64,000 nucleotides of DNA from an uncultured delta proteobacterium (GTDB lineage Bacteria > Myxococcota > Myxococcia > Myxococcales > Myxococcaceae), in the NCBI GenBank assembly GCA_963771175.1, contig CAVYSY010000037.1:1-64000 (forward strand), in the 5' to 3' direction. How positions within the stretch are numbered: the stretch's first letter is position 1; each line of letters begins with the position of its first letter. This document shows, piece after piece, positions 42,350 to 61,909 of this stretch. A program made the position numbers and the translations under genes. Below the pieces are notes generated by a model. The model saw only the letters and a list, made by a program, of their open reading frames with translations. It ran no database searches and had not been told where the DNA came from.

Positions 42350-42706
42350 TCAGTGCCTGGCTGCTTCCCCGAGACTTCCGACGGCGGCTGACAACCGTTC
42401 GACATCAATGGGCTTGCGCAGCACCATGTCGCAGCAGCCGGCGTCCACGTCGGTGTAGCCGGACACGAGGATGACCCCGGCCTTGGGCTGGCGGGTCTTC
42501 ACCTCCTGGGCGAGCACGGTGCCACACATGCCCGGGAGGGACTCGTCGGTGATGACCACGTCGGGGTGGTCATCCTCGAACGCCCTCAACCCCGCGGGAC
42601 CGTCCGGCGCCGTGATGACGTCGAAGTCCACCTCGAGAATCTCCGCGAGGAGTTCCCGGCTGTCGCCGTCATCCTCGACCAGCAACACCTTGATTCGCTC
42701 TCCCAT
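42350..42706 (-). CDS. Single-domain response regulator
   Basis: LLVEDD, VITDESLPG, VSG, LRKP. Confidence 0.92.
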   Translation of the reverse strand: MGERIKVLLVEDDGDSRELLAEILEVDFDVITAPDGPAGLRAFEDDHPDVVITDESLPGMCGTVLAQEVKTRQPKAGVILVSGYTDVDAGCCDMVLRKPIDVERLSAAVGSLGEAARH

Positions 42707-42859
42707 GCGCTACTGGAACCCAGAGGTTGAGCTGAAACGTCCGCGATCGCCCGGCGCTCCGTCCCGCGCCAGGAGGGCGAGCGAGGGGACGGGCCCCCCT
42801 CGCCGCTCACCGAAGGCCTCCGGGCTGAGCATCTTTCAGAGACCAAGGGAGGAGACGCC

Positions 42860-43204
42860 ATGAAGGTGTTGATGCGAGGAGTCCATCTGGAGCTGACGGA
42901 TTCGTTGCGGAACTACGTGACGCAGCATCTGGTGGAACCCCTCGTCAAGTACATCGACGACGAGGCGACCGAGCTGGATATCGCCCTGGCGGACATCAAC
43001 GGTCCCAAGGGAGGCGTGGACCAGGAGTGCCGGGTGACGGTGCGGATACCCGGCTTCTCGAGCATGCACGTCACGGAGACGGCGGAGACGATGTTCAACG
43101 CCATCGACACGGCGCGTGACACGCTGGAGAAGATGGTCAAGCGCACCATCGAGAAACGTCGGGAGGCGACCAGCCAGGGCCTCCCCGAGGACGTCCGCTT
43201 GTAG
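42860..43204 (+). CDS. HPF/RaiA-family ribosome-associated protein
   Basis: 'LELTDSLRNYV', 'DINGPKGGVDQEC.V', 'AIDTA.D.L'. Confidence 0.85.
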   Translation: MKVLMRGVHLELTDSLRNYVTQHLVEPLVKYIDDEATELDIALADINGPKGGVDQECRVTVRIPGFSSMHVTETAETMFNAIDTARDTLEKMVKRTIEKRREATSQGLPEDVRL

Positions 43205-47557: not shown

Positions 47558-48415
47558 TCATCTCCCGAGGTCCCGCGTGGAGAGCACCTCCGCGACCCGC
47601 TGGTACAGCCACGTATGCACCGGCACCGGCATTCCCTGAAGCACCACCTCTGAGTACAGCTCGTGGGTGAACCCGTGTCCGTGGACGATTCGTGCCGCGC
47701 ACAGCTCGTCCCACTGCCCGGCGAGCTCCACGGGGCGTGTGTCGAGCACCTCGCCGGCCAGCTTCAGGGAGAACCGCTCTCGCGCCACCGCCACGGTGCG
47801 CGCTAGTTGCAGGGTGGGCAACGACAGTCGCGCCAATCGGCGTGCGAGCAGCTCCCCCACCTTCTCCGGCACGGGCAGGGTCCCGGGTGACGTGGACGCC
47901 AGCTCTCCGGACCCGAGGAGGCTCTTGAGTGTCTCCACCACGAAGAGCGGGTTGCCCCCGGTGTGGCGGGTGAGTGGCTCCGCGAGCGCCGTGGCCCCAT
48001 CGACCTCCACCCCACCCAGCAGTTGACCCACCTCCTCGGAGGTGAGGGGCTCCAGCTCCACCCAGAGGGCGAGGCCCGCGTCCACCATTCCGCCGAGGAG
48101 TCGCTCCCCCTCGGAAGCCAGCTCCCCCGGGCGCAGCGCGGTGAGGACGCGTGGCAGCTCCGGGTCGTTCGACAGCCGGCTGACGAGGTACGCGAACACC
48201 TCGAGGCTGGCCGGGTCGCTGGCGTGCAGGTCGTCGATGAGGATGGCGGAGACGTCCCGGCCCGCGAGTCGCATCAGCTCGAGCTGTGCCTCGAAGAGTC
48301 GCGTCCGGTCCGTCTCGGGGTTGTATGGGGCGGGGGCCTCGCCCAGCTCCGGCATCACGCGCGCCAGCTCCCGCTTCACCCACGAGCGGATGATGGGGGA
48401 GGTCCTCTCCAGCAA
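47558..48415 (-). pseudogene. Internal fragment of a STAND/AAA ATPase regulator (BTAD/LuxR type)
   Basis: 'IDDLH..D.AS', 'TGGNPLFVVE', 'F.H.L'; no Walker A and no plausible start. Confidence 0.7.
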
Positions 48416-48593
48416 GCCGGAGGAGGCCCGCCGGATGGCCGGCTTCGGCGCGCGGGGGCTGGACTGCTACCTGCGCTTCCTCGACGACTGCCTGCGCGCG
48501 TCCCAGGGCACCTGGACCGCTCGCGCCGCGGCGGCCTGAGGCCCTCACGCGACAGGAGCGCCGCCCCCGTTGCCAGGGACGGCGCTCCTCGGC

Positions 48594-49772
48594 TCACCTC
48601 ACCGCCGTGACGACACCGGCGCCGATCGTCTTCCCACCCTCACGGATGGCGAAGCGCATGCCCGGCTCGACCCCGATGGGGTAGAGCAGGCGGAAGCTCA
48701 CCTGGGCCCGATCGCCCGGCTGGACGAGCCCCTCGCCCTTCACCTCGATGCTCCCCGTCACGTCCGTGCTCCCGAAGAAGAACTGCGGCGTGTAGCCGGT
48801 GCCGAACGGCGTGTGCCGGCCGCCCTCGTGGGCGGCGAGCACGTACAGCTCGGCCTCCCCGGTGGCGTGCGGGTGGATGGAGCCCGGAGCGCAGAGCACC
48901 TGCCCGCGCGTCACCTCCTCGCGCTTGACGCCGCGCAGCAGCAGCCCCACGTTCTCACCCGCCCGCGCCTCCGGGCGCTGCCGGTGGAAGGACTCGATGC
49001 CGGTCACCACCACCTCTCGCGTGTCCGGGCCCTCCAGCCCCACCACCTCCACCATCGCCCCGGCCGTGAGCACGCCGCGCTGGACGCGCCCCGTCACCAC
49101 CGTGCCGCGCCCCGAGATGGTGAAGACGTCCTCGATCGGCATCAGGAACGGCGAGGTGTAGTCCCGCACCGGGTCCGGGATGTGCCGGTCGAGCGCGTCC
49201 ACCAGCGCGCGGATGCAGCGGGTGGCCTCGTCCTCCACACGCCCGGCGGTGACGGCCTCGAGCGCCTTGAGGGCCGAGCCCTTCACCACCGGCACGTCCA
49301 TGTAGCCGTGGGTCGCGAGCAGCTCCTGCGTCTCGAGCTCCACCAGGGCGAGCAGCTCCGGGTCGGCCACGTCCATCTTGTTGACGAACACGACCATGTG
49401 CCGCACGCCCACCTGGCGGGCCAGGAGGATGTGCTCACGCGTCTGCGGCTGCGGCCCCTGCGAGCCGTCGACCAGCAGGATGGCGCCGTCCATCTGCGAG
49501 GCGCCGGTGATCATGTTCTTCACGTAGTCGGCGTGCCCCGGGCAGTCGATGTGGGCGTAGTGCCGCGTGGCCGACTCGTACTCGACGTGCGTGATGTTGA
49601 TGGTGATGCCGCGCGCCCGCTCCTCGGGCGCGCTGTCGATCTGGTCGAAGCCGAGCCCCTTGCCGCCATGCAGCGCGGCCATCACCTGGGTGAGGGCGGC
49701 GGTGAGCGTGGTCTTGCCGTGGTCGACGTGGCCGATGGTGCCGACGTTGACGTGCGTCTTCTGCGTGCCCAT
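48594..49772 (-). CDS. tuf: Divergent elongation factor Tu paralog
   Basis: [37 protein letters not shown]. Confidence 0.93.
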
Positions 49773-49818
49773 GGGAGTGCTCCTGGTTGTGGGCCGGGCC
49801 GGCCCGGGTGAAGCGCTG

Positions 49819-49859
49819 GAAAAAGAAAAACCCCTCGAGCCACGCGGGCCCGAGGGGTT
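49819..49859 (-). terminator. Intrinsic terminator in the tuf 5' leader (attenuator candidate)
   Basis: AACCCCTCGGGCC-CGCGT-GGCTCGAGGGGTT followed by TTTCTTTTT, about 50 nt before the tuf ATG. Confidence 0.8.
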
Positions 49860-49890
49860 GGCCGGGGAAGGCGCTGCCGGACTCAGCCGG

Positions 49891-49983
49891 TCAGAGCGCC
49901 ACCTCGCGCCGCGCACGCGGGTCTCGCGACGAGCGGATCGCCGCTGAGCCTGAGACTGATGACGTGGGCGCGAAGGAGGTCAT
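49891..49983 (-). CDS. Putative leader peptide [30 protein letters not shown]
   Basis: 30-aa ORF ending about 30 nt before the leader terminator; no clear SD. Confidence 0.45.
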
Positions 49984-50180
49984 GGCCGTCGAAAGGAAGA
50001 GAGTCCAGGGAGCACGGACGCTCGGGGCCGCGGAAACTGACACGCCCCGGTGTCACGCTTTCCCGGTTGTGGCCTGAAACGGGTGCATGGGCCTGGGAAG
50101 GAGTCAGGGTCTGAGCATCGGCGGGCCATGGATGGCGGCTCGTGGGTGCTCGGCGGGGCGGGCTGTGATAGCCCTGGTGT

Positions 50181-51482
50181 GTGAGCGACACCTTCCAGCA
50201 GCTTGGCCTGTCCCCCGAGTCCCTCGATGCCCTGCGCCGCGCGCGGTTCTCGGGGCCCACGCCCATCCAGGCGCAAGCCATTCCCCCGGCGCTCGCCGGC
50301 AAGGACGTCATCGGCTGCGCCGCCACCGGCACGGGCAAGACGGCCGCGTACGTGCTGCCCCTGGTGGAGCACTTCGCCGGCCGCAAGGGCACGCTGGGTC
50401 TGGTGCTGGCGCCCACCCGCGAGCTGGTGCAGCAGATCGCCGGGCCGGTGGGGTTCTTCGGCGAGTCGCGCGGCGTCACGCACGCGGTGGTCATCGGCGG
50501 CGAGGACATGGGGGCTCAGGTCGAGGCGCTGAAGCGGAAGCCCACGCTGGTGCTGGCCACGCCGGGGCGACTGGTGGACCTGCTGGGCTCGGGCGCCGCG
50601 GCGTTCCCGCACCTGGCGGCACTGGTGTTGGACGAGGCGGACCGGATGCTCGACATGGGCTTCCTGCCGCAGATCGAGCAGATCCTCGCCGCCCTGCCTC
50701 GCAAGCGGCAGACGCTCCTGTACTCGGCGACGCTGGGCCCGGATGTGAGCCGCTTCGCCCGTGAGTGGCTGCACAAGCCGGTGCGCGTGGAGGTGACGCG
50801 CAGTGGCACGCCCGCCGAGCGCGCCGAGCAGCGGCTGTACGTGGTGAAGCCGGAGGAGAAGTCCGCGCTGCTGCTCACGCTGCTCGCGCGGGACGAGGCG
50901 ACGGCTCTCGTGTTCACCCGGACGAAGGAGCGCGCGGACAAGGTCCACCAGTCGCTCCAGCGAGCGGGGTACCGGTGCGCGGTGCTGCACGCGGACCGGA
51001 CGCAGAACCAGCGCAACCAGGCGATGGAGGGCTTCCGCAAGGGCACGTACCGGTGCCTGGTGGCCACGGACATCGCGGCGCGAGGGCTGGACGTGGAGGA
51101 CGTGGGGCACGTCATCAACTACGACCTGCCGCACGCGCCGGAGGACTACGTGCACCGCATCGGCCGCACGGCGCGAGCCGCCGCGAGCGGCGTGGCCTCG
51201 ACGTTCGCCACGACGAAGGACCGGCAGATGATCGAGACCATCGAGCGGCTCATGCGGGGCGGGATTCCCCGAGCGACCGTGCCGCGAGAGGACCCCGTCT
51301 TCCAGGCGGAGGTGGAGCGACTCAGGCCGCGCAGCGCCACCCGGGTCCGCCCCAGAAGGACCATGGCGTCTCCAAGAAGGAGTCAGGGCAGGAGCCGGGG
51401 CGGCACGCGCGGTCGCACGGGCGAACTCCTCGGAAGTAAGGCGGGAGGAGCGGGCCCCCGCTCACGACGGACCGAGGACTGA
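50181..51482 (+). CDS. DEAD-box RNA helicase (RhlE-like)
   Basis: PTPIQ, TGTGKT, PTREL, TPGR, DEAD, SAT, ARGLD, HRIGRTAR. Confidence 0.96.
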   Translation: MSDTFQQLGLSPESLDALRRARFSGPTPIQAQAIPPALAGKDVIGCAATGTGKTAAYVLPLVEHFAGRKGTLGLVLAPTRELVQQIAGPVGFFGESRGVTHAVVIGGEDMGAQVEALKRKPTLVLATPGRLVDLLGSGAAAFPHLAALVLDEADRMLDMGFLPQIEQILAALPRKRQTLLYSATLGPDVSRFAREWLHKPVRVEVTRSGTPAERAEQRLYVVKPEEKSALLLTLLARDEATALVFTRTKERADKVHQSLQRAGYRCAVLHADRTQNQRNQAMEGFRKGTYRCLVATDIAARGLDVEDVGHVINYDLPHAPEDYVHRIGRTARAAASGVASTFATTKDRQMIETIERLMRGGIPRATVPREDPVFQAEVERLRPRSATRVRPRRTMASPRRSQGRSRGGTRGRTGELLGSKAGGAGPRSRRTED

Positions 51483-51603
51483 TTTTTAAGGGCTTGTCTA
51501 TTGCCTCATGGGCCACATGATTCCCACGGCGTAGAGTGTCCCTCGCCGTAGGCTGGCCAATTCGTCCTGTCCCTTCGGATGTGGTAGATCCACCACCTTG
51601 ACG

Positions 51604-52847
51604 ATGGAACACGGCGAACATACTGATTTTCCAAGGTTCTACCGAGTCAGCCCTGCGGATCGGAAGCCGCTCATCGACTTCATGATCGAGGGTCTTGAGG
51701 CTGGCGGCTGCCGAATCATTCATCGGCCGCGACCGGACCGGGCTCCATTCGTCATCACGTTCGAAACGCCACTGGGCGAGCGCGTTGGAATCGTCGCGTA
51801 CGCATTTCTCGCCAACAACGAAAAAATCAAGAATAGACCGTCCGACGAGCACCGCTTTCAGGTCAAATACGGAGGCGATCTGTCTGGATTGCATGGCGTA
51901 TGGCAGGACCCGTACGGTCTCTATACGACCCTTTTTCTTGGCATCAATCCTGACTCAGGCTTCTTCGTGGCGGCCGACCCCACGCTGCACCATCCTACCC
52001 GGTTCTCTGTTTCGGTGGAGTTCAAGGACGAGCATGCCGCGAGTATCGAGGAGAAAGGGTGGTTTGCCTGGGAGCGAGAGCGGCGTGGAGGTCACCCGAT
52101 CCGAAACAGAAGCGGACTTCGCGGGCGAGCGGTGGCGACAATGACCCGCTCTTCGAAGTGCTGGTCGGAGGGCGCCGCGAGCATTTCCTCCGGCTCATCC
52201 GGTTCGAGCGAGAGGCTTTTGGGGAAGCACCTGGCGAGCGTCAATACGTTGCAGACCATCTGGCCGATGGGAGCTTGGCGACCATCACGCCGGGGTTCTT
52301 GGAGGCCCCTCTCCCATCGCGAGAGCGGCTTCACTCGCTCGCACGGGAGTTTCAGTTGCCAGAGTCCCGGGTTCTCGACCTCATCGCTGAGCGCCGAATG
52401 CTTAAGGTCGCGGTCCGGGGGTCGGTGGCAGAGCAGCATCTGATCGAGACTCTTGGTGGCTTGCCCGGTGTCGAACGGTGCGCGCGCGTGCGTGACGAAA
52501 ATGGTCCCGATGTAGAGGTTGTGTTTGAGGGAAAGCGCCTTCTCGTCGAATGTAAGAATAGCTCTCGTAATCGCACTGCCGATGGTCTCGCGAAAATCGA
52601 TTTCCAACGAACGCGCGCCGCAAAGGGCAACCCGTGTTCGCGCTATTACAGCCCGACCGACTTCGATCTCGTCGCTGCGTGTATCCATGCTCTTACGGAG
52701 AAATGGGAGTTTTGCTACGCCCCGACACGCGCTCTTTCGCCACATCGCATCTGCGAGGGCAAGCTCGATAACAATGTGAAGCTAGATTCCAGGTGGATGT
52801 CCGACCCACGACAAGCTCTTCGGGAGGCGGCTCGGTGCACGGGTTGA
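51604..52847 (+). CDS. Putative restriction endonuclease with C-terminal PD-(D/E)xK domain (frameshift near 52100-52140)
   Basis: 'GPDVEV..EGKRLLVECKN'; directly upstream of a C5 methyltransferase; lower GC. Confidence 0.65.
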
Positions 52848-52877
52848 TGTCAGCCTCTTGGTGTACAACCGGCATTC

Positions 52878-54472
52878 ATGTCGACTCTAAAAGTCATCAG
52901 TCTGTTTTCTGGCGCTGGTGGTCTCGACTACGGGTTTGAGGCTGCTGGGTTCCACACCGCCGTCACTCTTGAATTCGACCGCTACTGCTGTGAGACCCTT
53001 CGGCGGAACCGGCCGTGGCCTGTCATCGAACGCAGCATCTTCGATGTGCCCACAGATGAGTTGCTGTCGACGGCAGGTCTTAAGATTGGCGAGGCTGCGG
53101 TTCTGATTGGTGGGCCGCCCTGCCAACCGTTCTCGAAGTCCGGATATTGGAAGAGCGGTGATTCGAAGCGCCTTGATGACCCACGCGCTGACACGCTCAG
53201 TGCCTATGTTCGGGTTCTAGAGGAGGCACTGCCAGGTGTTTCTTCTCGAGAACGTTGGCGGTATGGCGTTCTCGGAGAAGGACGAAGGGCTGCAGATGCT
53301 GCTCGATCGCATTGCGCGCATCAATCGCCGAGCGAAGACTCACTATCGGCCCGTTTTCAAGCTACTGAACGCTGCGGATTACGGCGTGCCACAACTCCGG
53401 GAGCGGTTTTTCATCATCGGCGTTCGTGATGGAACACCGTTCCGTTTTCCCACACCGACGCATTTCGATCCGGCCGAGTCGAGCGACCTCCTGATGGGCA
53501 GTGCGTTCGTGCTCATACCGCACGGCGTGGGATGCCTTGGGCGACTTGCCAGACGACGGAGGGGGAGAAGACGTGGCGATGCGCGGAAAGTGGGCAGAGT
53601 TGCTTCCGTCCATTCCCGAAGGTCAGAACTACCTCTGGCACACGGAGCGTGGCGGCGGCCTCCCATTGTTCGGATGGCGCCGCCGCTATTGGAACTTCTT
53701 GCTGAAGTTGGCAAAGAATCAGCCGTCGTGGACGGTGCAGGCTCAGCCTGGGCCCTCAGTAGGCCCATTCCATTGGAAAAACCGCCGCCTGAGCATCCGC
53801 GAACTCTGCCGCATTCAGACCTTCCCGGGTGACGTGCAGATAGTCGGTGACCGGATCGCTGGGCAGCGGCAGGTTGGCAATGCTGTGCCCTCTCTTCTCG
53901 CGGAAGTGCTCGCGCGCGCGCTTCGCGAGCAGGTTTTTGGTGGGCGCGTCAAGTCAGTGCATCCGAGCTTGATGCCGCCAGTGCGGTCACCCGTTCCGGC
54001 GCCAGAGCCTATGCACTCTGTTCCCAGGAAGTACCGCTCGCTCATTGGCGCTCACGAACCGCACCCCGGGACGGGGATGGGTTACGGCGCGCTCGCTAGG
54101 AAAGCGGCCGCCGAGTACGAGTCCGCAGCAAGCCCAGTTCGTACGGCGGTGACGATGGCTTCGACGGCAGGTCCTCGGGTCCCTTTTGATGTCGGTCTCC
54201 CAGAAACGCAGCACTCTCCAGCCAAGCTCCGACAGCTTGCGCTCATTGCTGCGGTCGCGCTCAAAGTTCGCTTTCACCTTGGATACCCAGTAGCTCGCAT
54301 TGTGTCCGCGCGCGAGCTTTCGAAGGCGCTCTTCGAGATTTCGTCCGTGCCAGAAATCCCCATCGACGAACACGGCCAAGCGAGCGCGTCGGAAGACGAT
54401 GTCCGGACGCCCCGGAAGGTCTCCCGCGTCGATGCGGAAACGCAGGCCCGCAGCATGAAGCGCTCGGCGTAG
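52878..54472 (+). CDS. dcm: DNA (cytosine-5)-methyltransferase, frameshifted; true 3' end uncertain
   Basis: FSGAGG, GGPPCQPFS, ENV, PQLRER, RELCRIQTFP, QVGNAVP across three frames. Confidence 0.92.
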
Positions 54473-54844: not shown

Positions 54845-56578
54845 TCACTTCGAGACGTGTGGAAGTGGCAGCGCCTCCAGGACACTGAATCCACCTGCGG
54901 CGTCCAGTTCTTTGCCTGTGAGATGACATGAGCGCTCGCGGGGCAGGGACAGGGTGAAGCAGGCGCCCTGGCCCGGCTCGCCGCCCACGTCCAGCTTGCC
55001 CCCGTGCTCCTGGAGGATGCGCGCGGCGATGGCCAGTCCCAGGCCCGTGCCGCCGTCCTTGGTGGTGAAGTAGGGCTCGAAGATGCGGGCGCGGTGCTCG
55101 GGGGGAATCCCCGGGCCGCTGTCCTGCACCTCCACCACCGCCTCCCGCTCGCTGCCGTGCACGCGCACGTGCAGCGCCCCGCCGCCCTTCGTCATCGCCT
55201 CCTCGGCGTTCTTCACCAGGTTGACGAGCACCTGCGTGAGCTGGTCCCGGTCCACCTTCGCCACCACTCCCGGCTGCACCTCCGAGTGGATGCTGATGCC
55301 CGGCGGCGGTGAGGCGTAGAGCGACAGCACGTTCTGCGCGAGCTCGCCCAGGTCCACCGGCTCCAGTTGCGGCTTGGGCAGGCGTGCGAAGCGGCTGAAC
55401 TCGTCGACAATCCGCTTCAGCCGGTCCACCTCCTCCAGGATGACGCCCGCGCTCTCGCGGAACAGGGCGGGGAAGCGCGCGTCCTGCGCGTCCTGCACCG
55501 CCATCAGCGTCTCCAGCGACATCCGGATGGGCGTCAGCGGGTTCTTGATTTCGTGCGCCAGCCGCCTCGCTACCTCCTGCCACGCGGCCACGCGCTCGCT
55601 GGCCACCAGCCGCTCGGTGGTGGAGCGCAGCTCCGTCGTCATGTGGTTGAACGTCTTCACCAGCTCGCCCACCTCGCCCGTGGCCTTCACCTGCACCTGC
55701 ACGTCCAGCGCGCCCTCGCCCACGCGCCTCGCACCCGAGGTGAGTGCCTCCACCGGCTGGGTGATGCGTCGGGCCATCAGCATTCCCACCAGCACCGCGA
55801 AACTCAGGCCCAGTCCCGCCAGCAGCAGGAAGGAGCGCAACACCCCCAGCGTGGCCTCTCGCTCGGCCGCGCGGCTGAAGAGGAGCCGCACCGTGGCGGC
55901 CTCGCCCAGCGGCAGCACGCGCGACACCGTGGGCGGTGTCACGCTACCGGCCCGGGCCACCACCGTGTCCCCGGACAGCAGCGACACCTCCGCTCCCGTG
56001 AGCCGCGACAGGTGCGACGCCAGCCCCTGGTCCAGCAGCACTCCTCCCACCGCCCACAGCCTCGTGTCCCCGTAGTCCACCGGCCTCGCCGTGACGAGCG
56101 CGGGCACCTCGCGCAGGCCCTCGTCCCCGCGCACCGACACCTTCACCGGCACTGGCTTGGGCGACTTCTCCCGGGTGACTCCGAAGAGCTCCGGGTCCGG
56201 ATCCCCCCGGCGCGCGGGCAGGTGCCCGGAGGACAGCGTGGTGCCCTTCCGGTCGAAGAGCGCCAGCACCGTGAGGCCCCGGCTCTTCATCAGCGCCTGG
56301 GCGGTGTCCGCGCGGATGGCGCGAGCGGGAGACTCTCGGGCCTCGCGCGCCAGGTCCTCCATCGCGGGGCTCTCCACCAGCTCCTCCACCGCCCGGCGCG
56401 CGTTGGCGGCGGCGCGCTCGAGGGCCTCCTGCGCGGAGGCGGTGGCCCCGTCCATGCGCGCATCCAGCCCCCGCGAGAGCGTGGCGCGCAGTCGCGTCAG
56501 CGTGAAGGGCACCATCACCGCCAGCGGCACCAGGGCCAGCAGGGCGAAGGCGAGCGCCAGCCGCGTCCTCAACCTCAT
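54845..56578 (-). CDS. NtrY-like HAMP sensor histidine kinase
   Basis: 'AAWQEVARRLAHEIKNPLTPI', NLVKNA, DSGPG, GTGLGL. Confidence 0.93.
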   Translation of the reverse strand: MRLRTRLALAFALLALVPLAVMVPFTLTRLRATLSRGLDARMDGATASAQEALERAAANARRAVEELVESPAMEDLAREARESPARAIRADTAQALMKSRGLTVLALFDRKGTTLSSGHLPARRGDPDPELFGVTREKSPKPVPVKVSVRGDEGLREVPALVTARPVDYGDTRLWAVGGVLLDQGLASHLSRLTGAEVSLLSGDTVVARAGSVTPPTVSRVLPLGEAATVRLLFSRAAEREATLGVLRSFLLLAGLGLSFAVLVGMLMARRITQPVEALTSGARRVGEGALDVQVQVKATGEVGELVKTFNHMTTELRSTTERLVASERVAAWQEVARRLAHEIKNPLTPIRMSLETLMAVQDAQDARFPALFRESAGVILEEVDRLKRIVDEFSRFARLPKPQLEPVDLGELAQNVLSLYASPPPGISIHSEVQPGVVAKVDRDQLTQVLVNLVKNAEEAMTKGGGALHVRVHGSEREAVVEVQDSGPGIPPEHRARIFEPYFTTKDGGTGLGLAIAARILQEHGGKLDVGGEPGQGACFTLSLPRERSCHLTGKELDAAGGFSVLEALPLPHVSK

Positions 56579-57948
56579 TTCCGGGCTCCCGGGACTCCCG
56601 TCAGGGTCGGCTGCAGCCAGGTACCGTCCAGCATGGGCAGCCCCTGGCCGTCGAAGGCGAGCCCTCCCACCTCCGGCGCCGCGCGCAGCGCCAGCCCCTG
56701 CGCGTAGAGGGGCAGCATCGGCACGGACGGGGCGAGCGCCAGGGCCCGCTCGCGCGCCCTCGCGTCTCGCGCCGCCGGGTCCGCCAGGGCGCCGATGCGC
56801 GGCAGTTCCACCCCGAGCAGGTCCTTCCGGCCCGCCGCGTCCAGCACCACGGCCAGGGCCGGGCCGGGCACGGGCGGCAGCAGCAGCGAGTGCAGCATCA
56901 GCTCGTAATCGCCCCTTGCCCAGCGGGCGCGCAGCTCGGCGCGCGGCAGCGGCTCCAGCGCCACGGCGTAGCCCCGGTCGTGCAGCTTCACCTGGAGGCG
57001 CTCGGCCACCGCGCGCTGGTCCTCGCTGCCCGCGTCGTAGAGGAGCGTCACCTTGCGCGCGGCCTGGGGCGGGGGCGGCGCGGTGCGCGGGCCCGCGGCT
57101 GCGGGGAGGAGGGCGGGCGGCAGCAGGTGCGGCATGGGCACGGCCGGCCCGCGCACGAAGAGGCGCGTGAGGTCCTCCCGGTCGAGGGCGCTCTCCACCG
57201 CCAGGCGGAAGTCCGGAGGCACGCGTCGCGGCGTCCAGGCCAGATAGGTGGCGTACAGCGCCGCGCCGGAGGGGGTACCCACGTCGGGGAGGACGCCGAG
57301 CGCCACCTGGGTCTCCTTCGAGGACCACAGGCGCGAGAGGCCGCGCTCGTCGGTGGCGGTGAGGCGCAGCCGGTCCAGGTACGGCCGGCCCTCGGTCCAG
57401 GCGAGCCGCGCTTCCACGGCGGTGGGGCCCGAGGCGGAGAAGGGGCCGAGCGCGGCGGGGGCGGAGCGCGGAGGGGCGAGCGCGGGGTGGCACAGCGCGC
57501 GCTCCAGGTCCGGCCACGGGAAGGCGAGCGCCAGCTCCAGGCTGTCCCCGGTGGCGGAGAGCTGCCGGCCCTCGGCGCGCAGCGGGAAGAGGAGGGCGCG
57601 GTAGGGCGAGGGGGCCTCGGTGCCGGCGAGCCGTGTCCAGGCGCGGGTGAGCGCGGAGGCCTGGGCGGGCGAGGGCAGGGTGAGGCGCACCACCTGCGGG
57701 AAGGGGCGCGTCAGCTCCCGGGCGAGCGCGGGAGAGAGGTGCCCGTCCGCGGCCAGCCGACACGCGGGCCGCGAGATGAGCCCGAGGAGGGTGGCCTCGG
57801 TGGGGGTGTCGGCGAGGGCCGGCTCTCCGGGCTCGGCGGGGCCGGTGTGGGCGACGCGCAGCTCGCCTCCGTAGGGGACGCGGCCGGCGGCGAGCGCCGG
57901 CGCGGCGCCGAGCAGGAGGAGGCTGGCGAGGGCGTGGCGGAGCGTCAT
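56575..57948 (-). CDS. Peptide/nickel ABC-type substrate-binding-like protein
   Basis: Signal peptide; 'YGGELRV', 'LGPF', 'GRPYLDRL', 'PLY'. Confidence 0.75.
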   Translation of the reverse strand: MTLRHALASLLLLGAAPALAAGRVPYGGELRVAHTGPAEPGEPALADTPTEATLLGLISRPACRLAADGHLSPALARELTRPFPQVVRLTLPSPAQASALTRAWTRLAGTEAPSPYRALLFPLRAEGRQLSATGDSLELALAFPWPDLERALCHPALAPPRSAPAALGPFSASGPTAVEARLAWTEGRPYLDRLRLTATDERGLSRLWSSKETQVALGVLPDVGTPSGAALYATYLAWTPRRVPPDFRLAVESALDREDLTRLFVRGPAVPMPHLLPPALLPAAAGPRTAPPPPQAARKVTLLYDAGSEDQRAVAERLQVKLHDRGYAVALEPLPRAELRARWARGDYELMLHSLLLPPVPGPALAVVLDAAGRKDLLGVELPRIGALADPAARDARARERALALAPSVPMLPLYAQGLALRAAPEVGGLAFDGQGLPMLDGTWLQPTLTGVPGARK

Positions 57949-59321
57949 GGCGCACCCTGGCGCAGGAGGAAGAGCTCGCCGGTGCCGTCCGGCTTCGTGA
58001 GGCCCACCACCACCTCGCGGTACCTGTCCCCGTCCAGGTTGGCCGTCACCACCTGCAGGGCGCGGCCGGCGGGCAGGGGGCCCTGCCAGAGGGGCTCGTG
58101 GGTGGTGGGGTTGCTCCCGTTCGTCTTGAAGACGCGCAGGGTGTCCTGTGCCGGCTGTATCTCGGCCGAGGTGGTGAGCAGCTCCGGCGTCCCATCCCCG
58201 TCCAGGTCCCCGAGCGCGCTGCCGGCGCCGAGGCCGGAGAGGAGCAGGGGCGCCACCGAGGGCCGCGGGAAGAAGGAGGCCGAGCCATCCGGGTGGACGA
58301 GGAGGACGCGGGAGTTGGCGGTGCTGAAGGTGGTGAAGCGGGCCGGCACGCCGGGGAGGAGGGTGCCGCCGAGCCGCACCTCGGAGGTGAAGGCCGTCTG
58401 TCCCGGCACGAAGGTGCCGCGCGCGTCCGGGCCCAGGGGCGCGGCATCGAGCCGGGCCACTCCGTGCAGCGCGCCGCCCTCCAGGGAGAGCACCTCGCCG
58501 TGGGCGTAGCGGGTGGAGAAGGCGGCGAGGCGCGGCGGTCCAGCGAGGACGGTGAGGGCGCCGAAGGGCTCGCGGGTGGGGGCGGGGCTGGGGGACAACG
58601 CCTCCAGCGAGCGCTCCGCGACGAGGTGCCCGTCGGCGGCGAAGACGAAGACGGCGCGCTCGGTGAGGGCCACCACCTCGTCCTTGCCGTCCCCATCGAG
58701 GTCCCCCGCGGCGAGCGCGGCGAGCGGCTCGGGCAGCCGCGCCAGCACGGCGCCCAGCAGGCGCAGGGGGCGCGGCTCCTCCGGGGTGGTGGGCGGCGGG
58801 CGCGGAGCGGACTCCACTGCGGCGAGCGCGAGCGCCGCGGCGTCCGCCTCCACCGACTGGGCGATGGCGGCGGCGGGCCCGGGCGGACGGGTGGCCGTGC
58901 GACCGGACCAGAAGTTCACCCAGGTGCCGAGCAGGTCGCCGTGCGCGCGCAGCTCCCCGTCCCTCGACGTCCAGGGTGAGGCGCACCAGGGCTCGGGCTC
59001 CCTGCTCGCGGGCGAGGGACTCGGCGGCCACGGGCGAGGGCGCCTCCAGCACCACGGGCGCGAGCCGTCGGAGGCGAGCCGCGCGGCGAGCAGCGTGCCC
59101 GAAGGCACGTCGCAATTCAGGGGTGCCGCCGGAGAAGTGCAGGGCCACGGGGGCCTCGGGCTTCTCCGCCCGCACGTCCGCGGCCACGGCCTGCGCGAGC
59201 CGCTCGAGGGCGGGAGTCGGCCGGGCGCCGGGGCGGCCGGGGCTGGCTGAGCCGGAGGGGGTTGGGCGGCCGGAGCGGGCAGCGCGGCCAGCAGCAGCGC
59301 GGCGGCGAGGGCTCGGCTCAC
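57945..59321 (-). CDS. Exported FG-GAP/VCBS repeat protein (frameshifted)
   Basis: GDLDGDGKDE, GDLDGDGTPE, NLDGDRYRE. Confidence 0.75.
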   Translation of the reverse strand: MSRALAAALLLAALPAPAAQPPPAQPAPAAPAPGRLPPSSGSRRPWPRTCGRRSPRPPWPCTSPAAPLNCDVPSGTLLAARLASDGSRPWCWRRPRPWPPSPSPASREPEPWCASPWTSRDGELRAHGDLLGTWVNFWSGRTATRPPGPAAAIAQSVEADAAALALAAVESAPRPPPTTPEEPRPLRLLGAVLARLPEPLAALAAGDLDGDGKDEVVALTERAVFVFAADGHLVAERSLEALSPSPAPTREPFGALTVLAGPPRLAAFSTRYAHGEVLSLEGGALHGVARLDAAPLGPDARGTFVPGQTAFTSEVRLGGTLLPGVPARFTTFSTANSRVLLVHPDGSASFFPRPSVAPLLLSGLGAGSALGDLDGDGTPELLTTSAEIQPAQDTLRVFKTNGSNPTTHEPLWQGPLPAGRALQVVTANLDGDRYREVVVGLTKPDGTGELFLLRQGAP

Positions 59322-61909
59322 AGACCGCCCCGACTGCCTTCCTGGAGGAAGAAGTCGCTCGGGCTGACGTGGCCGGGCGGGGGGGCCTCGGCGGTGGGCT
59401 GGGTGCCCTCGAGGAAGGACTCGAGGCGGCCCGGCACGGAGTTGCCAGCGAGCAGGCCGGTGACGGGGTCGATGCGCACCTGCACCACGCCAGGGGGCAC
59501 GCTCGAAGTCGCGCGAGGGCAGGCCCTGGTGGGCGGCGCGCATGAAGTCCGAGCCAGATGGGGAGGGGCGCGCGGCCGCCCGTCTCGCGAGCTGCCCAGC
59601 GGCGAGTGGTCGTCGAAGCCCACCCAGGCGCTGGCGACCAAGTCCGCGGTGTAGCCGCTGAACCAGGCGTCGCGGTTCTCGCTGGCGGTGCCCGTCTTGC
59701 CGGCGGCGGGGCGGTTGAGCTCGCGTCACCGCCTTGGCCGTGCCCTCCTCCACCACGCTGCGCATCAGCGAGGTGGTGAGGTAGGCCACCGCCGGGGGCA
59801 GCGTCTCCTCGAAGGCCGGCTGGTGCTCCTCGAGCACCTTGCCGCCGCGCGTCCGTCACCTTCAGCAGCATCAGCGGCTCGGCATGGCGGCCGTTGGCCT
59901 GCAGGGTGGCGTAGGCGTTGGCCGCCTCCAGGATGCTCACCTCGCCGGTGCCCAGCGCGAGGGTGAGGTTCTCCGGCAGCGGCGAGCGGATGCCGGCCCG
60001 GCGGGCGAAGTCGATCGCGGTGGCGGGGGTGATGGCCTCGATGAGGCGTACGGACACGGTGTTCTTGGACTTGGTGAGCGCCTCGCGCAGCGTCATGGGG
60101 CCCTCGAAGGCGCGATCGTAGTTCTGCGGCTTCCACGTCTTGCCGGTGTACGGGTCGCGGATGGCCTCGGGGGCGTCGTTCACCGGGCTGAGGGGGGTGA
60201 AGCGGCCGCTGCCGAGCGCGGCGCCGTAGAGGAAGGGCTTGAAGGACGAGCCCGGCTGGCGCTTCGCCTGGGTGGCGCGGTTGAAGGGCGAGCGTTCGAA
60301 GTCGTAGCCGCCCACCAGCGCCACCACGTGGCGGTTGCTCGGGTTGATGACGACGAGGCCGCCCTGCACGAGCGGCACCTGGTCCAGCGTGGCCTCCAGG
60401 AGCGCGGGGGCGGGCGTGACGCGCAGCACGCGCACGAGCACGAGGTCTCCGGGCTTCATCACGTCCGACATCTTCGAGGGCGCGCCCTTCCCCTTGAGGC
60501 GCGCCCAGGTGACGGTGGAGAAGGGAATCTCCGCGGTGCGGCCCACCAGGTCCACGCGGGCGCGCTTGCCCGCGTCGTCCACCTGGGTGACGAAGCCCGT
60601 CACCCGCAGGCCCTCCTTGAGGGGCTCGAGCTTCACGTCGAGCGCGAGCTTCTCGTCGGCGGAGAGCGTGGCCTCCTCCTCCTCCTCGGCGGGGGTCTCC
60701 ACCGGCTCCTCGGCCTCGGCCGGCTTGGGCGTCTGCTCACCCGTCTGGGCGAGCGAGGCGAGGTCGGCGACGTAGGCGCCTTCCTTCTGGCGCCGGCCCG
60801 TCTCTTCGAGCTGCTTCGCGATGAGGGGCTGGAGCCGCTCGAAGCGCGCGGGCTCCAGCGTGCCGAGGGCGCCGCGGTAGCCCTGGCGCCGGTCCACCGC
60901 CTCCAGCCCCTCGCGCACCGCCTCGTCGGCGATCGCCTGGAGCTTCGGGTCCATGGCGATGTCCACGCGCAGGCCGCCGGTGAGCACGACCTCGTCGCCG
61001 TAGCGGGCGACGAGCGTGCGGCGGATCTCCTCGGCGTAGTAGGGGCCCACCTCGGGCGGCGGCCGAGGCGCGAGCACGATGGGCTTCTCCAGCTCCTTCT
61101 CCACCACCTCCCTCGGGAGGAAGCCGTGCTCGGCCATCTGCCCCAGCACGTAGCGCTGACGCTGCTTGGCGCGGACGATGTTCGTCTCCGGGTTGATGCG
61201 GTTGGGCGACTGCACCGTGCCGCCGAGCACGGCGGCCTCGCCGACGCTCAGGTCCTTCGCGTGCTTGCCGAAGTAGTAGAGCGCCGCCTCCTCGACGCCG
61301 TAGCGGCGCTGCCCGAAGTAGGTCTGGTTCACGTACAGGTTGAGGATCTGGTCCTTGGTGAGGGCCTGCTCCACGCGCGGGGTGAGGATCCACTCGCGAA
61401 TCTTGCGCGTCAGGCTGCGCTCGTGCGTGAGCAGCAGGTTCTTCACCACCTGCTGGGTGATGGTGGAGGCGCCGGACTTGCGGCTGCCGGGGATGAGGTT
61501 CTTCACGGCCGCGCGGACCATGCCGACGAAGTCGAGGCCCTCGTGCTTGTAGAAGTCGGCGTCCTCGGCGGCGAGGAAGGCGTTGCGCACGTGGGGCGGC
61601 AGCTCCGTGACGTCCACCAGGGTGCGGCGCCCCTGGGGCATGAAGAACTCCGCGCACACGGAGCCGTCGGCGCAGGCGCACCTTGGTGACCTGGGGCAGG
61701 GCGTAGGTGCGCAGCGCCTCCACCGAGGGCAGGTCCCGGCTGAAGTAGAGGTAGACGCCTCCAACGACGAGCGCGAGCAGCACCACGCCCACGGCGGCCA
61801 GGACGAGGAGCCGCTTCGTCCATCGCCACAGCCGGGCGCCGAAGCGGGCCGGAGGGATGGAGGGTGGGGAGGATTTTCGCTGGGAGCTCATCTCTCGGGC
61901 CGTGTTCAT
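59318..61909 (-). CDS. mrcA: Penicillin-binding protein 1A (multiple frameshifts)
   Basis: AEDADFY.H.G, GASTITQQ, RKIRE, QPGSSFKP, SKN, KTG-type motif in an alternate frame. Confidence 0.92.

Follow-up and report, generated by a model that had tools for sequence, protein, structure and literature searches.

Why should a bacterium with two ordinary genes for elongation factor Tu (EF-Tu) keep a third, diverged one behind a short serine-rich open reading frame (ORF) and an intrinsic terminator? The question is raised by a stretch of 64,000 nucleotides (the window) from an uncultured member of the Myxococcaceae, positions 1 to 64,000 of contig CAVYSY010000037.1 in assembly GCA_963771175.1. We examined the EF-Tu paralog of this window, its leader and its orthologues in other genomes. 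On the sequence evidence below, it is reasonably likely that promoter, attenuator and accessory EF-Tu make up a self-contained single-gene module, in which a serine-codon attenuator controls an alternative EF-Tu.

The third EF-Tu gene and its clade

The gene in question is complete:

48594..49772, minus strand: coding sequence of the EF-Tu paralog, 392 amino acids plus stop

The protein passed the NCBIfam equivalog model for EF-Tu, TIGR00485, with 559.4 bits (cut-off 522.4; the housekeeping copies score about 755 bits), and it matched all three Pfam EF-Tu domains (PF00009 for the GTPase, PF03144 and PF03143 for domains 2 and 3). The G motifs and the catalytic histidine of DCPGH are intact and the SAL motif is visible, both in the sequence and in the alignments, while solved EF-Tu structures aligned with the paralog from end to end (E about 1e-153). 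We detected three EF-Tu genes in this genome (9.8 Mb in 58 contigs, 82% complete), the paralog being the third. The housekeeping pair are near-identical to each other and each is 59% identical to the paralog. Both occupy canonical contexts: one (contig C22) follows fusA and precedes the S10 genes in the order fusA-tuf-...-rplD, and the other (contig C25) lies in the order tRNA Thr-Tyr-Gly-Thr-tuf-tRNA Trp-secE-nusG. The initial annotation, made from the window alone, had described a full EF-Tu outside the str and secE contexts, and the 392-residue ORF and the placement of the two housekeeping copies agree with it. A tufB-like arrangement with upstream tRNA genes was rejected for the paralog, as none lie close to it.

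The same annotation had pointed to several departures from canonical EF-Tu, and they were recovered in the translation: the N-terminus is short and lacks the usual AKEKFER, the YRPQFYFRTTD segment is altered, and PIGV replaces PIAM. With residues numbered by alignment to the E. coli tuf gene, the annotated substitutions at R333 and T334 are R333G and T334S. The third position named there, A375, proved to be unchanged: it lies in RFAIREGG, and the PIAM motif corresponds to residues 365-368 instead, where the paralog has A367G and M368V. The paralog carries L104, G304, G333 and S334 where EF-Tu is otherwise universally V104, F304, R333 and T334, and since all four differ we regard it as a distinct subfamily within EF-Tu.

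Orthologues with 91-93% identity were found in 9 out of 17 other genomes of the same genus, together with one fragment. At E <= 1e-152, and counting the window's own genome, the order had the paralog in 36 out of 363 genomes: 34 out of 207 other genomes of its own family, the single genome of a second family, and none of the 154 genomes of the other seven families. It was also found in 37 out of 401 genomes of a sample of the phylum, other classes included; the genomes in all these counts are samples and many are incomplete, so that a gene not found is not a gene absent. The protein database held more than 120 clusters at 72-92% identity, the closest named proteins coming from Archangium. These clusters are partly labelled Polyangia, Pendulispora or Myxococcota, and one metagenome-assembled genome (MAG) is labelled Alphaproteobacteria.

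A phylogeny against housekeeping tuf, which the initial annotation had proposed as a check, placed the paralog in a separate, fast-evolving monophyletic clade, whose members come mainly from Myxococcota. Rooted on E. coli, a maximum-likelihood tree with 73 rows united all 56 paralog rows in one clade (SH-aLRT 100), its stem measuring 0.95 substitutions per site, and the 16 housekeeping rows of Myxococcota formed another clade (support 93). Monophyly was kept (42 rows, support 100) after the addition of 78 EF-Tus of other phyla, a panel drawn from among the matches listed and used also for conservation. The broad outgroups attached the clade near the long-branch rows L175 and L157, a placement that we rejected as most likely an artefact, the point of attachment not being reliable.

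The clade has a signature of its own: R333G, V104L and S106D occur in all 56 sequences, F304G, G268A and V360F in 55, A107G in 54, and A367G and R262H in 52. Among the matches listed from other phyla, V104, F304, R333 and T334 were canonical in 77 out of 78 EF-Tus, and the single exception, a MAG labelled Pseudomonadota (L152), carries the clade signature. A signature held throughout the clade, at residues that are canonical elsewhere, indicates at the level of sequence a factor under its own selection and not a decaying copy. As judged from sequence, the clade defines an EF-Tu subfamily not listed before; Table 1 of the 2015 census of translational GTPases gives actEFTu2 as the only extra bacterial EF-Tu subfamily (PMC4342817).

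Within the clade, a basal subclade (L059, L064, L065 and L066) has the N-terminus MSQKKE..., and one of its members (L066) has an upstream tRNA-Tyr gene, recalling the tRNA-tufB arrangement.

A serine-codon leader ahead of the gene

Upstream of the paralog, all on the minus strand, we found the following elements, of which region 1, region 2 and the stall site are proposed:

49891..49983, minus strand: leader ORF of 30 codons, ATG at 49983, stop at 49893..49891, without a Shine-Dalgarno sequence
49945..49962, minus strand: rare-serine cluster TCA TCA GTC TCA GGC TCA, the proposed stall site on the basis of codon usage
49963..49976, minus strand: region 1, predicted by the minimum-free-energy fold to pair with region 2 when no ribosome is present
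49896..49917, minus strand: region 2, the proposed antiterminator CGTGCGCGGCGCGAGGTGGCGC with its GAGG box, just before the leader stop
49829..49859, minus strand: intrinsic terminator hairpin (regions 3 and 4), a 13-bp stem with 9 G-C pairs and a 5-nt loop, then TTTCTTTTTC
49818..49828, minus strand: T-run of the terminator, TTTCTTTTTCC

The strong intrinsic terminator and the 30-codon Ser/Arg-rich ORF of the initial annotation are both in place. The window's leader contains 7 serine codons in 30, and four of them are TCA within six codons, a codon that makes up 2.1% of serine codons in this genome. We compared the leaders of the first 30 orthologue loci. Of 11 Archangium-type loci, 9 have the 30-codon frame as a called ORF, and in the remaining two a longer called ORF contains this frame. 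It is positionally homologous to the poly-serine leaders of other genera (for example MRSSSSSSSSSSSS, MRSSSSSSSSSSSSAPDACA and MCSSSSSSSSSSSASADRRAMT), which carry runs of 8-12 UCN serine codons, the Archangium form being degenerate with 6-8 serines in 30 codons. A serine-rich short ORF precedes the hairpin in 28 out of 30 loci, with a GTG start in L020; of the other two, L019 is cut by a contig end and offers only 131 nt upstream of the gene, and L052 lacks such an ORF. Among distant lineages, L056 has MFRRSLSSLSPVSGPLSSDSG... with eight TCG codons and a terminator, and L067 has a poly-serine ORF with no terminator detected.

The codon bias of the leaders is strong. Serine accounts for 237 out of 635 codons in 26 distinct leader ORFs (6.3% in the window's genome), and 235 of those 237 codons are UCN, although AGC and AGT together supply 32% of serine codons genome-wide. 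TCA and TCT, at 94 out of 237 against 4.6% in the window's genome, are enriched. Outside Archangium, codons 3-13 show T at 83% of first positions, C at 90% of second positions and any base at the third, a triplet periodicity that looks like selection on the codon family.

Two further signs of serine control were looked for and set aside. Purging of UCN from the paralog's own coding sequence is mild only (AGY 37% of serine codons against 19% in housekeeping tuf; TCA 0/372), and a whole-genome scan for TCN-rich short ORFs followed by a hairpin, as expected of a wider serine regulon, gave 14 weak matches, none convincing. A pattern made of serine run, box and terminator arm matched in 47 out of 208 genomes of the family; in 19 of these genomes the matches coincide with the paralog locus, and the remaining ones are single, lie elsewhere and stand at about the level of a reversed-pattern control (22 places).

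The terminator lies 56 nt ahead of the start codon of the paralog, and a terminator scan returned 2 terminator-like sites where shuffles predict 0.4. A GC hairpin with a T-run stands 17-84 nt before the start codon in 28 out of 30 orthologue loci; in L020, one of the two exceptions, about 85 nt are inserted between the same arms, and in L019, the other, the contig breaks off. The terminator core, CCCCTCGAG/CTCGAGGGG, does not vary among 16 leaders, and the two outer pairs show compensatory changes. The leader stop is 26-40 nt from the terminator, 31 nt before the terminator arm in the window. A short upstream ORF, regulatory codons for one amino acid, and an intrinsic terminator between ORF and gene are thus all present, as in known attenuators.

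Two blocks do not vary among 22 aligned leaders: CCCTCG, within the terminator's 5' arm, and the GAGG box, placed at the leader stop or immediately ahead of it. The box complements the 5' arm, resembles the 3' arm, and can pair with the serine run instead. For folding, we took the nascent RNA as far as the terminator loop and represented a ribosome by masking 30 nt around a serine codon in the middle of the run. With no ribosome, the pyrimidine-rich serine run (window 49976..49963) was predicted to pair with the box region, leaving the terminator arm free. With a ribosome masked on the TCA cluster of the window, region 2 was predicted to pair with 9 out of 13 nt of the 5' arm, against 4 out of 13 without it. 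In 20 leaders the mean number of sequestered 5'-arm nucleotides rose from 3.95 to 9.0 with the ribosome on the serine run, in the same direction in 20 out of 20, whereas spacer shuffles that preserve dinucleotides moved from 6.4 to 7.2. A ribosome masked at the stop codon gave a mixed result. The folding of the leader that the initial annotation had called for therefore came out divided: an antiterminator switch is predicted in 20 out of 20 leaders, while the per-sequence shuffle controls are weak. We regard the three-state pairing model as a well-motivated proposal.

No Rfam family matched the window at gathering score except two tRNAs, the leader at E <= 10 gave two chance-level matches only (13 and 11.6 bits), and four orthologue loci gave no match.

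Upstream of the leader ORF we found a bipartite motif resembling promoters of extracytoplasmic function (ECF) sigma factors:

50037..50041, minus strand: -35-like element GTCAG of an ECF-type bipartite motif (motif only)
50017..50020, minus strand: -10-like element CGTC (motif), 33 nt before the leader ATG

The motif, GTCA(G/T)-N16-17-CGTC, precedes 28 out of 28 leaders, and its spacer sequences are unrelated. CGTC lies 8-12 nt before the leader ATG in most genera and 33-36 nt before it in Archangium. In Wecke 2012 (PMC3426412), many ECF-sigma promoters have CGTC as their -10 consensus and a spacer of 16 +/- 1; the motif has both, and its -35 element differs from the TGTCACA of ECF41. Leader transcription is thus probably driven by an ECF-sigma-type promoter. 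The want of a Shine-Dalgarno sequence fits an ORF placed at the 5' end of the RNA or close to it, given the 8-12 nt between CGTC and ATG in most genera. The initial annotation had named transcription starting downstream of the terminator as the case against its own model, and a promoter-like motif before the leader ORF in every leader argues against such a start. A sigma-70 promoter scan gave no site in 48300..50400.

Right after the putative -10 element, at 50003-50019, a second hairpin, a weak one (GTCCGTGCTCCCTGGAC, followed by a T/C-rich run), would stand at the 5' end of the leader transcript; similar sequence occurs in other Archangium-type leaders.

Between the terminator and the gene the window has two further elements:

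49794..49808, minus strand: small GC palindrome CCCGGGCCGGCCCGG, lying after the terminator and ahead of the Shine-Dalgarno sequence
49780..49784, minus strand: Shine-Dalgarno sequence AGGAG of the EF-Tu gene, 7 nt before its ATG

The stem that follows the terminator changes by genus while its complementarity is kept (CCGGGCC/GGCCCGG, GCGCC/GGCGC and GGGGC/GCCCC, loci L040-L048 and L070 included), and it is missing in one genus group, which carries GCGCGTGACAC there. In one Archangium-type locus (L015, genome G017, about 1481-1500) a deletion removes the spacer and the Shine-Dalgarno sequence before the EF-Tu start codon, and this gene may, to judge from the deletion, be poorly translated or heading for loss. 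The Pseudomonadota-labelled L152 (390-560) has the clade signature and a leader terminator, but its leader ORF, MIRSAKTLNGLAVLAIAGADERDYTDF, is not serine-rich; on such sequences the regulatory codons may differ between lineages.

What the leader would sense and what the protein would do

In the mechanism that we propose, transcription would start at the ECF-sigma-type promoter, and the UCN-rich short ORF, without a Shine-Dalgarno sequence, would be transcribed first. A ribosome reading quickly to the stop would cover the GAGG box, so that hairpin and U-run form and transcription stops short of the EF-Tu gene. Termination would follow too if no ribosome loads, the box then being held by the 5' part of the leader. 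A ribosome slowed on the serine codons would instead leave the GAGG box to pair with the 5' arm of the terminator, giving read-through into the EF-Tu gene. Such slowing would arise from a shortage of charged tRNA-Ser(UCN) or of its delivery to the A site.

Several precedents bear on the choice of codons. In B. subtilis under serine starvation, ribosome density rises at the four UCN codons and not at AGC or AGU, and serine is among the amino acids that run out first (PMC3862929). Theory holds that the sensitivity of an attenuator depends on synonymous codon choice and on low codon usage (PMC1183508). Given this slowing at UCN codons and this theory, the codon bias of the leaders appears meaningful, and the anatomy shared with the his, thr and leu leaders, taken together with the UCN precedents, leads us to read the module as a sensor of slow UCN decoding. 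The signal would be the decoding speed of serine codons and not a drug as such, because relatives of the window's leader carry runs of 8-12 UCN codons. In this respect the stalling-dependent attenuator of the initial annotation survives in part: its anatomy is conserved in orthologues, whereas a drug becomes the less likely signal, since the leader is a degenerate poly-serine leader. The product is most likely an alternative elongation factor that is expressed conditionally, for use when translation is starved or impaired, and in function it would be an analogue of Streptomyces EF-Tu3.

A number of points weigh against a serine-sensing attenuator. The output of a classical attenuator makes the amino acid that is sensed; here EF-Tu is the only gene downstream and neither makes nor charges serine, so that control by serine is left unexplained. 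The window's own leader is degenerate, with 7 serines in 30 codons and no long run, and the leader ORF has no Shine-Dalgarno sequence and in Archangium lies about 26-33 nt from the putative start site, its translation being assumed. The serine run is missing in L052, in the basal subclade (L059, L064-L066) and in L152, and the pyrimidine run could be retained for RNA pairing rather than for serine. The fraction of shuffles that reach the observed switch is 0.02-0.65 per sequence (0.15 in the window), the sequences being kin; RNAalifold recovers just the terminator and an inner hairpin; and covariation cannot support the alternative pairing, because the key pairs are invariant.

The benefit of the protein may lie in starvation adaptation, in insensitivity to inhibitors or in better handling of Ser-tRNA: the placement of the changed residues is compatible with all three and proves none. 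We take the clade-specific changes to lie near the acceptor-end pocket and the domain junction. One extension of the serine-sensing module, which we put forward tentatively and think somewhat doubtful, is a closed homeostatic loop, in which the UCN-serine attenuator would induce an EF-Tu variant that delivers scarce Ser-tRNA, or aminoacyl-tRNA generally, when the housekeeping factor cannot. The remodelled surface of tRNA acceptor and domain junction would then consist of R333G, F304G, R262H and V104L/S106D/A107G, and the loop would be triggered by starvation, by (p)ppGpp or by an inhibitor that blocks ternary-complex formation.

An elfamycin-insensitive back-up EF-Tu, as the initial annotation had it, is a less likely account. 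Here the attenuator would sense drug-slowed delivery of aminoacyl-tRNA and turn the gene on when housekeeping EF-Tu is poisoned; the attenuator is shared with the serine-sensing module, and only the natural signal and the benefit of the protein differ. Pulvomycin and GE2270A keep aminoacyl-tRNA from binding to EF-Tu (PMC4307249), so that the A site would be starved and the leader ribosome would stall. Within the clade R333G is invariant, T334 is S, T or A, and Y160 is H, Q or N; G257S is found in 11 of the 13 orthologues that were compared, the paralog of the window not being one of these 11. Some of these are positions that we take to confer resistance: R230C, R333C and T334A to pulvomycin and G257S and G275A to GE2270A in E. 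coli, and changes at Y160 to kirromycin, for which L120, Q124, G316, Q329, A375 and E378 presumably count as well. The paralog has R333G and T334S, which would fit resistance of the pulvomycin type, among the pulvomycin and GE2270A positions, with R230, G257 and G275 as in E. coli, and it keeps six out of seven presumed kirromycin positions (L120, Q124, G316, Q329, A375 and E378), Y160H being the only change; V226 is also unchanged. The altered residues line the surface that meets the aminoacyl-tRNA acceptor end and may equally reflect changed handling of tRNA, and a general drug sensor does not explain a leader built almost wholly of UCN codons.

The genomic setting does not favour the drug either. 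The Pfam scan of 23 window ORFs showed no biosynthetic gene cluster near the paralog, and among 58 flanking ORFs of the 30 orthologue loci it showed neither a biosynthetic cluster nor a conserved partner gene. We therefore rejected the idea of a self-resistance gene of a biosynthetic cluster. The picture of a predator of antibiotic producers, also part of the initial annotation, is speculation.

We judge it improbable that the paralog is specialised for serine decoding, for instance by tighter binding of Ser-tRNA(UCN) in a closed feedback loop. The exclusive coupling of the serine leader to the paralog across classes of Myxococcota would suit such a role, as would V258I, R262H, K263R and G268A, which we assume to lie beside the tRNA 3' end and the aminoacyl pocket, and the changes in domain 3; a serine-specific EF-Tu was reportedly described in nematode mitochondria by Ohtsuki in 2002. 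On the other side, the residues that we take to form the aminoacyl side-chain pocket (H66, E215, D216, F218, T228 and N273) and the T-stem contacts (Q329, T338 and E378) are unchanged in the E. coli-numbered alignments, and the set of tRNA-Ser genes is ordinary.

Finally, an independent small gene, for a peptide or a small RNA, that ends in a terminator of its own, or else an RNA site bound by a protein (TC-rich, with GGA motifs), with EF-Tu transcribed from a downstream promoter, is very hard to credit: the missing Shine-Dalgarno sequence of the leader ORF, the lack of a known RNA family in Rfam and the GGA-containing box and Shine-Dalgarno sequence, which presumably resemble motifs of RNA-binding regulators, would fit it, but the terminator is only 34-84 nt from the start codon with no promoter-like site found there (in L015, 17 nt from the stem and 12 from the T-run, too few to accommodate a separate promoter), the leader element was not seen away from the paralog beyond control level in the scan of 208 genomes, and ATG, in-frame stop and triplet periodicity are all conserved.

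As to the surroundings, the paralog lies between a divergently transcribed DEAD-box helicase gene and a 302-residue ORF to which the Pfam scan assigned no family, a Band-7 protein being a further neighbour, and the neighbours vary from locus to locus among the 30 orthologue loci. An S30AE gene (ribosome hibernation / sigma-54 modulation) at 42350-43204, 5.4 kb from the paralog, adjoins a stand-alone response-regulator gene. An island of lower GC at 51598-54472 (0.59-0.64, about 0.71 in its surroundings) holds a methylase-associated MTaX1 protein and a C-5 cytosine DNA methylase apparently split between the ORFs 52878-53429 and 53501-54472, and may be a frameshifted restriction-modification element. 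The region 54845-61764 has very high GC (0.76-0.79) and long overlapping open frames on the minus strand, among them a histidine kinase, an FG-GAP repeat protein and a class-A penicillin-binding protein whose frame extends far beyond its domains; the gene boundaries in this region are provisional.

Comparison with known systems

Leader-peptide attenuation is textbook knowledge for amino-acid biosynthesis. The module shares with the trp, his, thr, leu and pheA leaders a short ORF with tandem codons, a three-way choice of pairing (1:2, 2:3 and 3:4; predicted in our case) and a terminator, and also the position of the stop codon, at which a terminating ribosome would cover the proposed antiterminator. 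A biased synonymous choice among the regulatory codons is common to both as well (PMC1183508). It differs in using serine codons, in having a translation factor as its output, in lacking a Shine-Dalgarno sequence and in an ORF that is probably near the 5' end of the transcript. In the open-access literature searched and in Rfam we found neither a serine leader-peptide attenuator nor an attenuator with a core translation factor as its output. If the proposed mechanism is true, this would be the first leader-peptide attenuator specific for serine and the first one known with an elongation factor under its control, and bacteria would be using the decoding speed of one codon family to choose which elongation factor is made.

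The leader attenuators of erm, cat and ABC-F genes have in common with the module that a stalled leader ribosome remodels the RNA and switches on a gene that protects translation. They use arrest motifs specific to a drug and a peptide, whereas here there is a run of a single codon family and no drug is implicated. Closer in codon logic is sinR of B. subtilis, where UCN and not AGC or AGU codons read serine depletion at the end of growth; there the codons belong to the regulator's own coding sequence, whose translation they lower (PMC3862929), while here a dedicated leader would control termination. The near-exclusive use of UCN in the leaders and the enrichment of the rare TCA and TCT would tie the module to serine depletion as an early starvation signal, which would be relevant where multicellular development begins with amino-acid starvation.

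The serine-specific EF-Tu2 of nematode mitochondria is likewise an EF-Tu paralog tied to serine decoding, but it is organellar and adapted to truncated tRNAs, and our paralog has no sign of serine specificity, because the residues that we take to form the aminoacyl pocket are unchanged. The subfamily offers a natural experiment on otherwise invariant residues of tRNA binding, domain closure and inhibitor binding.

The nearest parallel to the protein is Streptomyces EF-Tu3, which is reportedly resistant to three classes of inhibitor, and for whose gene, tuf3, we know of no leader-peptide attenuator. The gene is reportedly inessential, under positive stringent control and inhibitor-resistant (PMC4342817). 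It belongs to a different phylum, and the likeness is one of description; the Streptomyces EF-Tus among the matches listed were all canonical. Both are extra, diverged EF-Tus (actEFTu2 in Streptomyces) encoded away from the ribosomal operons, in soil bacteria that go through a developmental cycle; if the module works as proposed, the Myxococcota would own a dedicated 'emergency' EF-Tu, with its need both sensed and answered at the ribosome.

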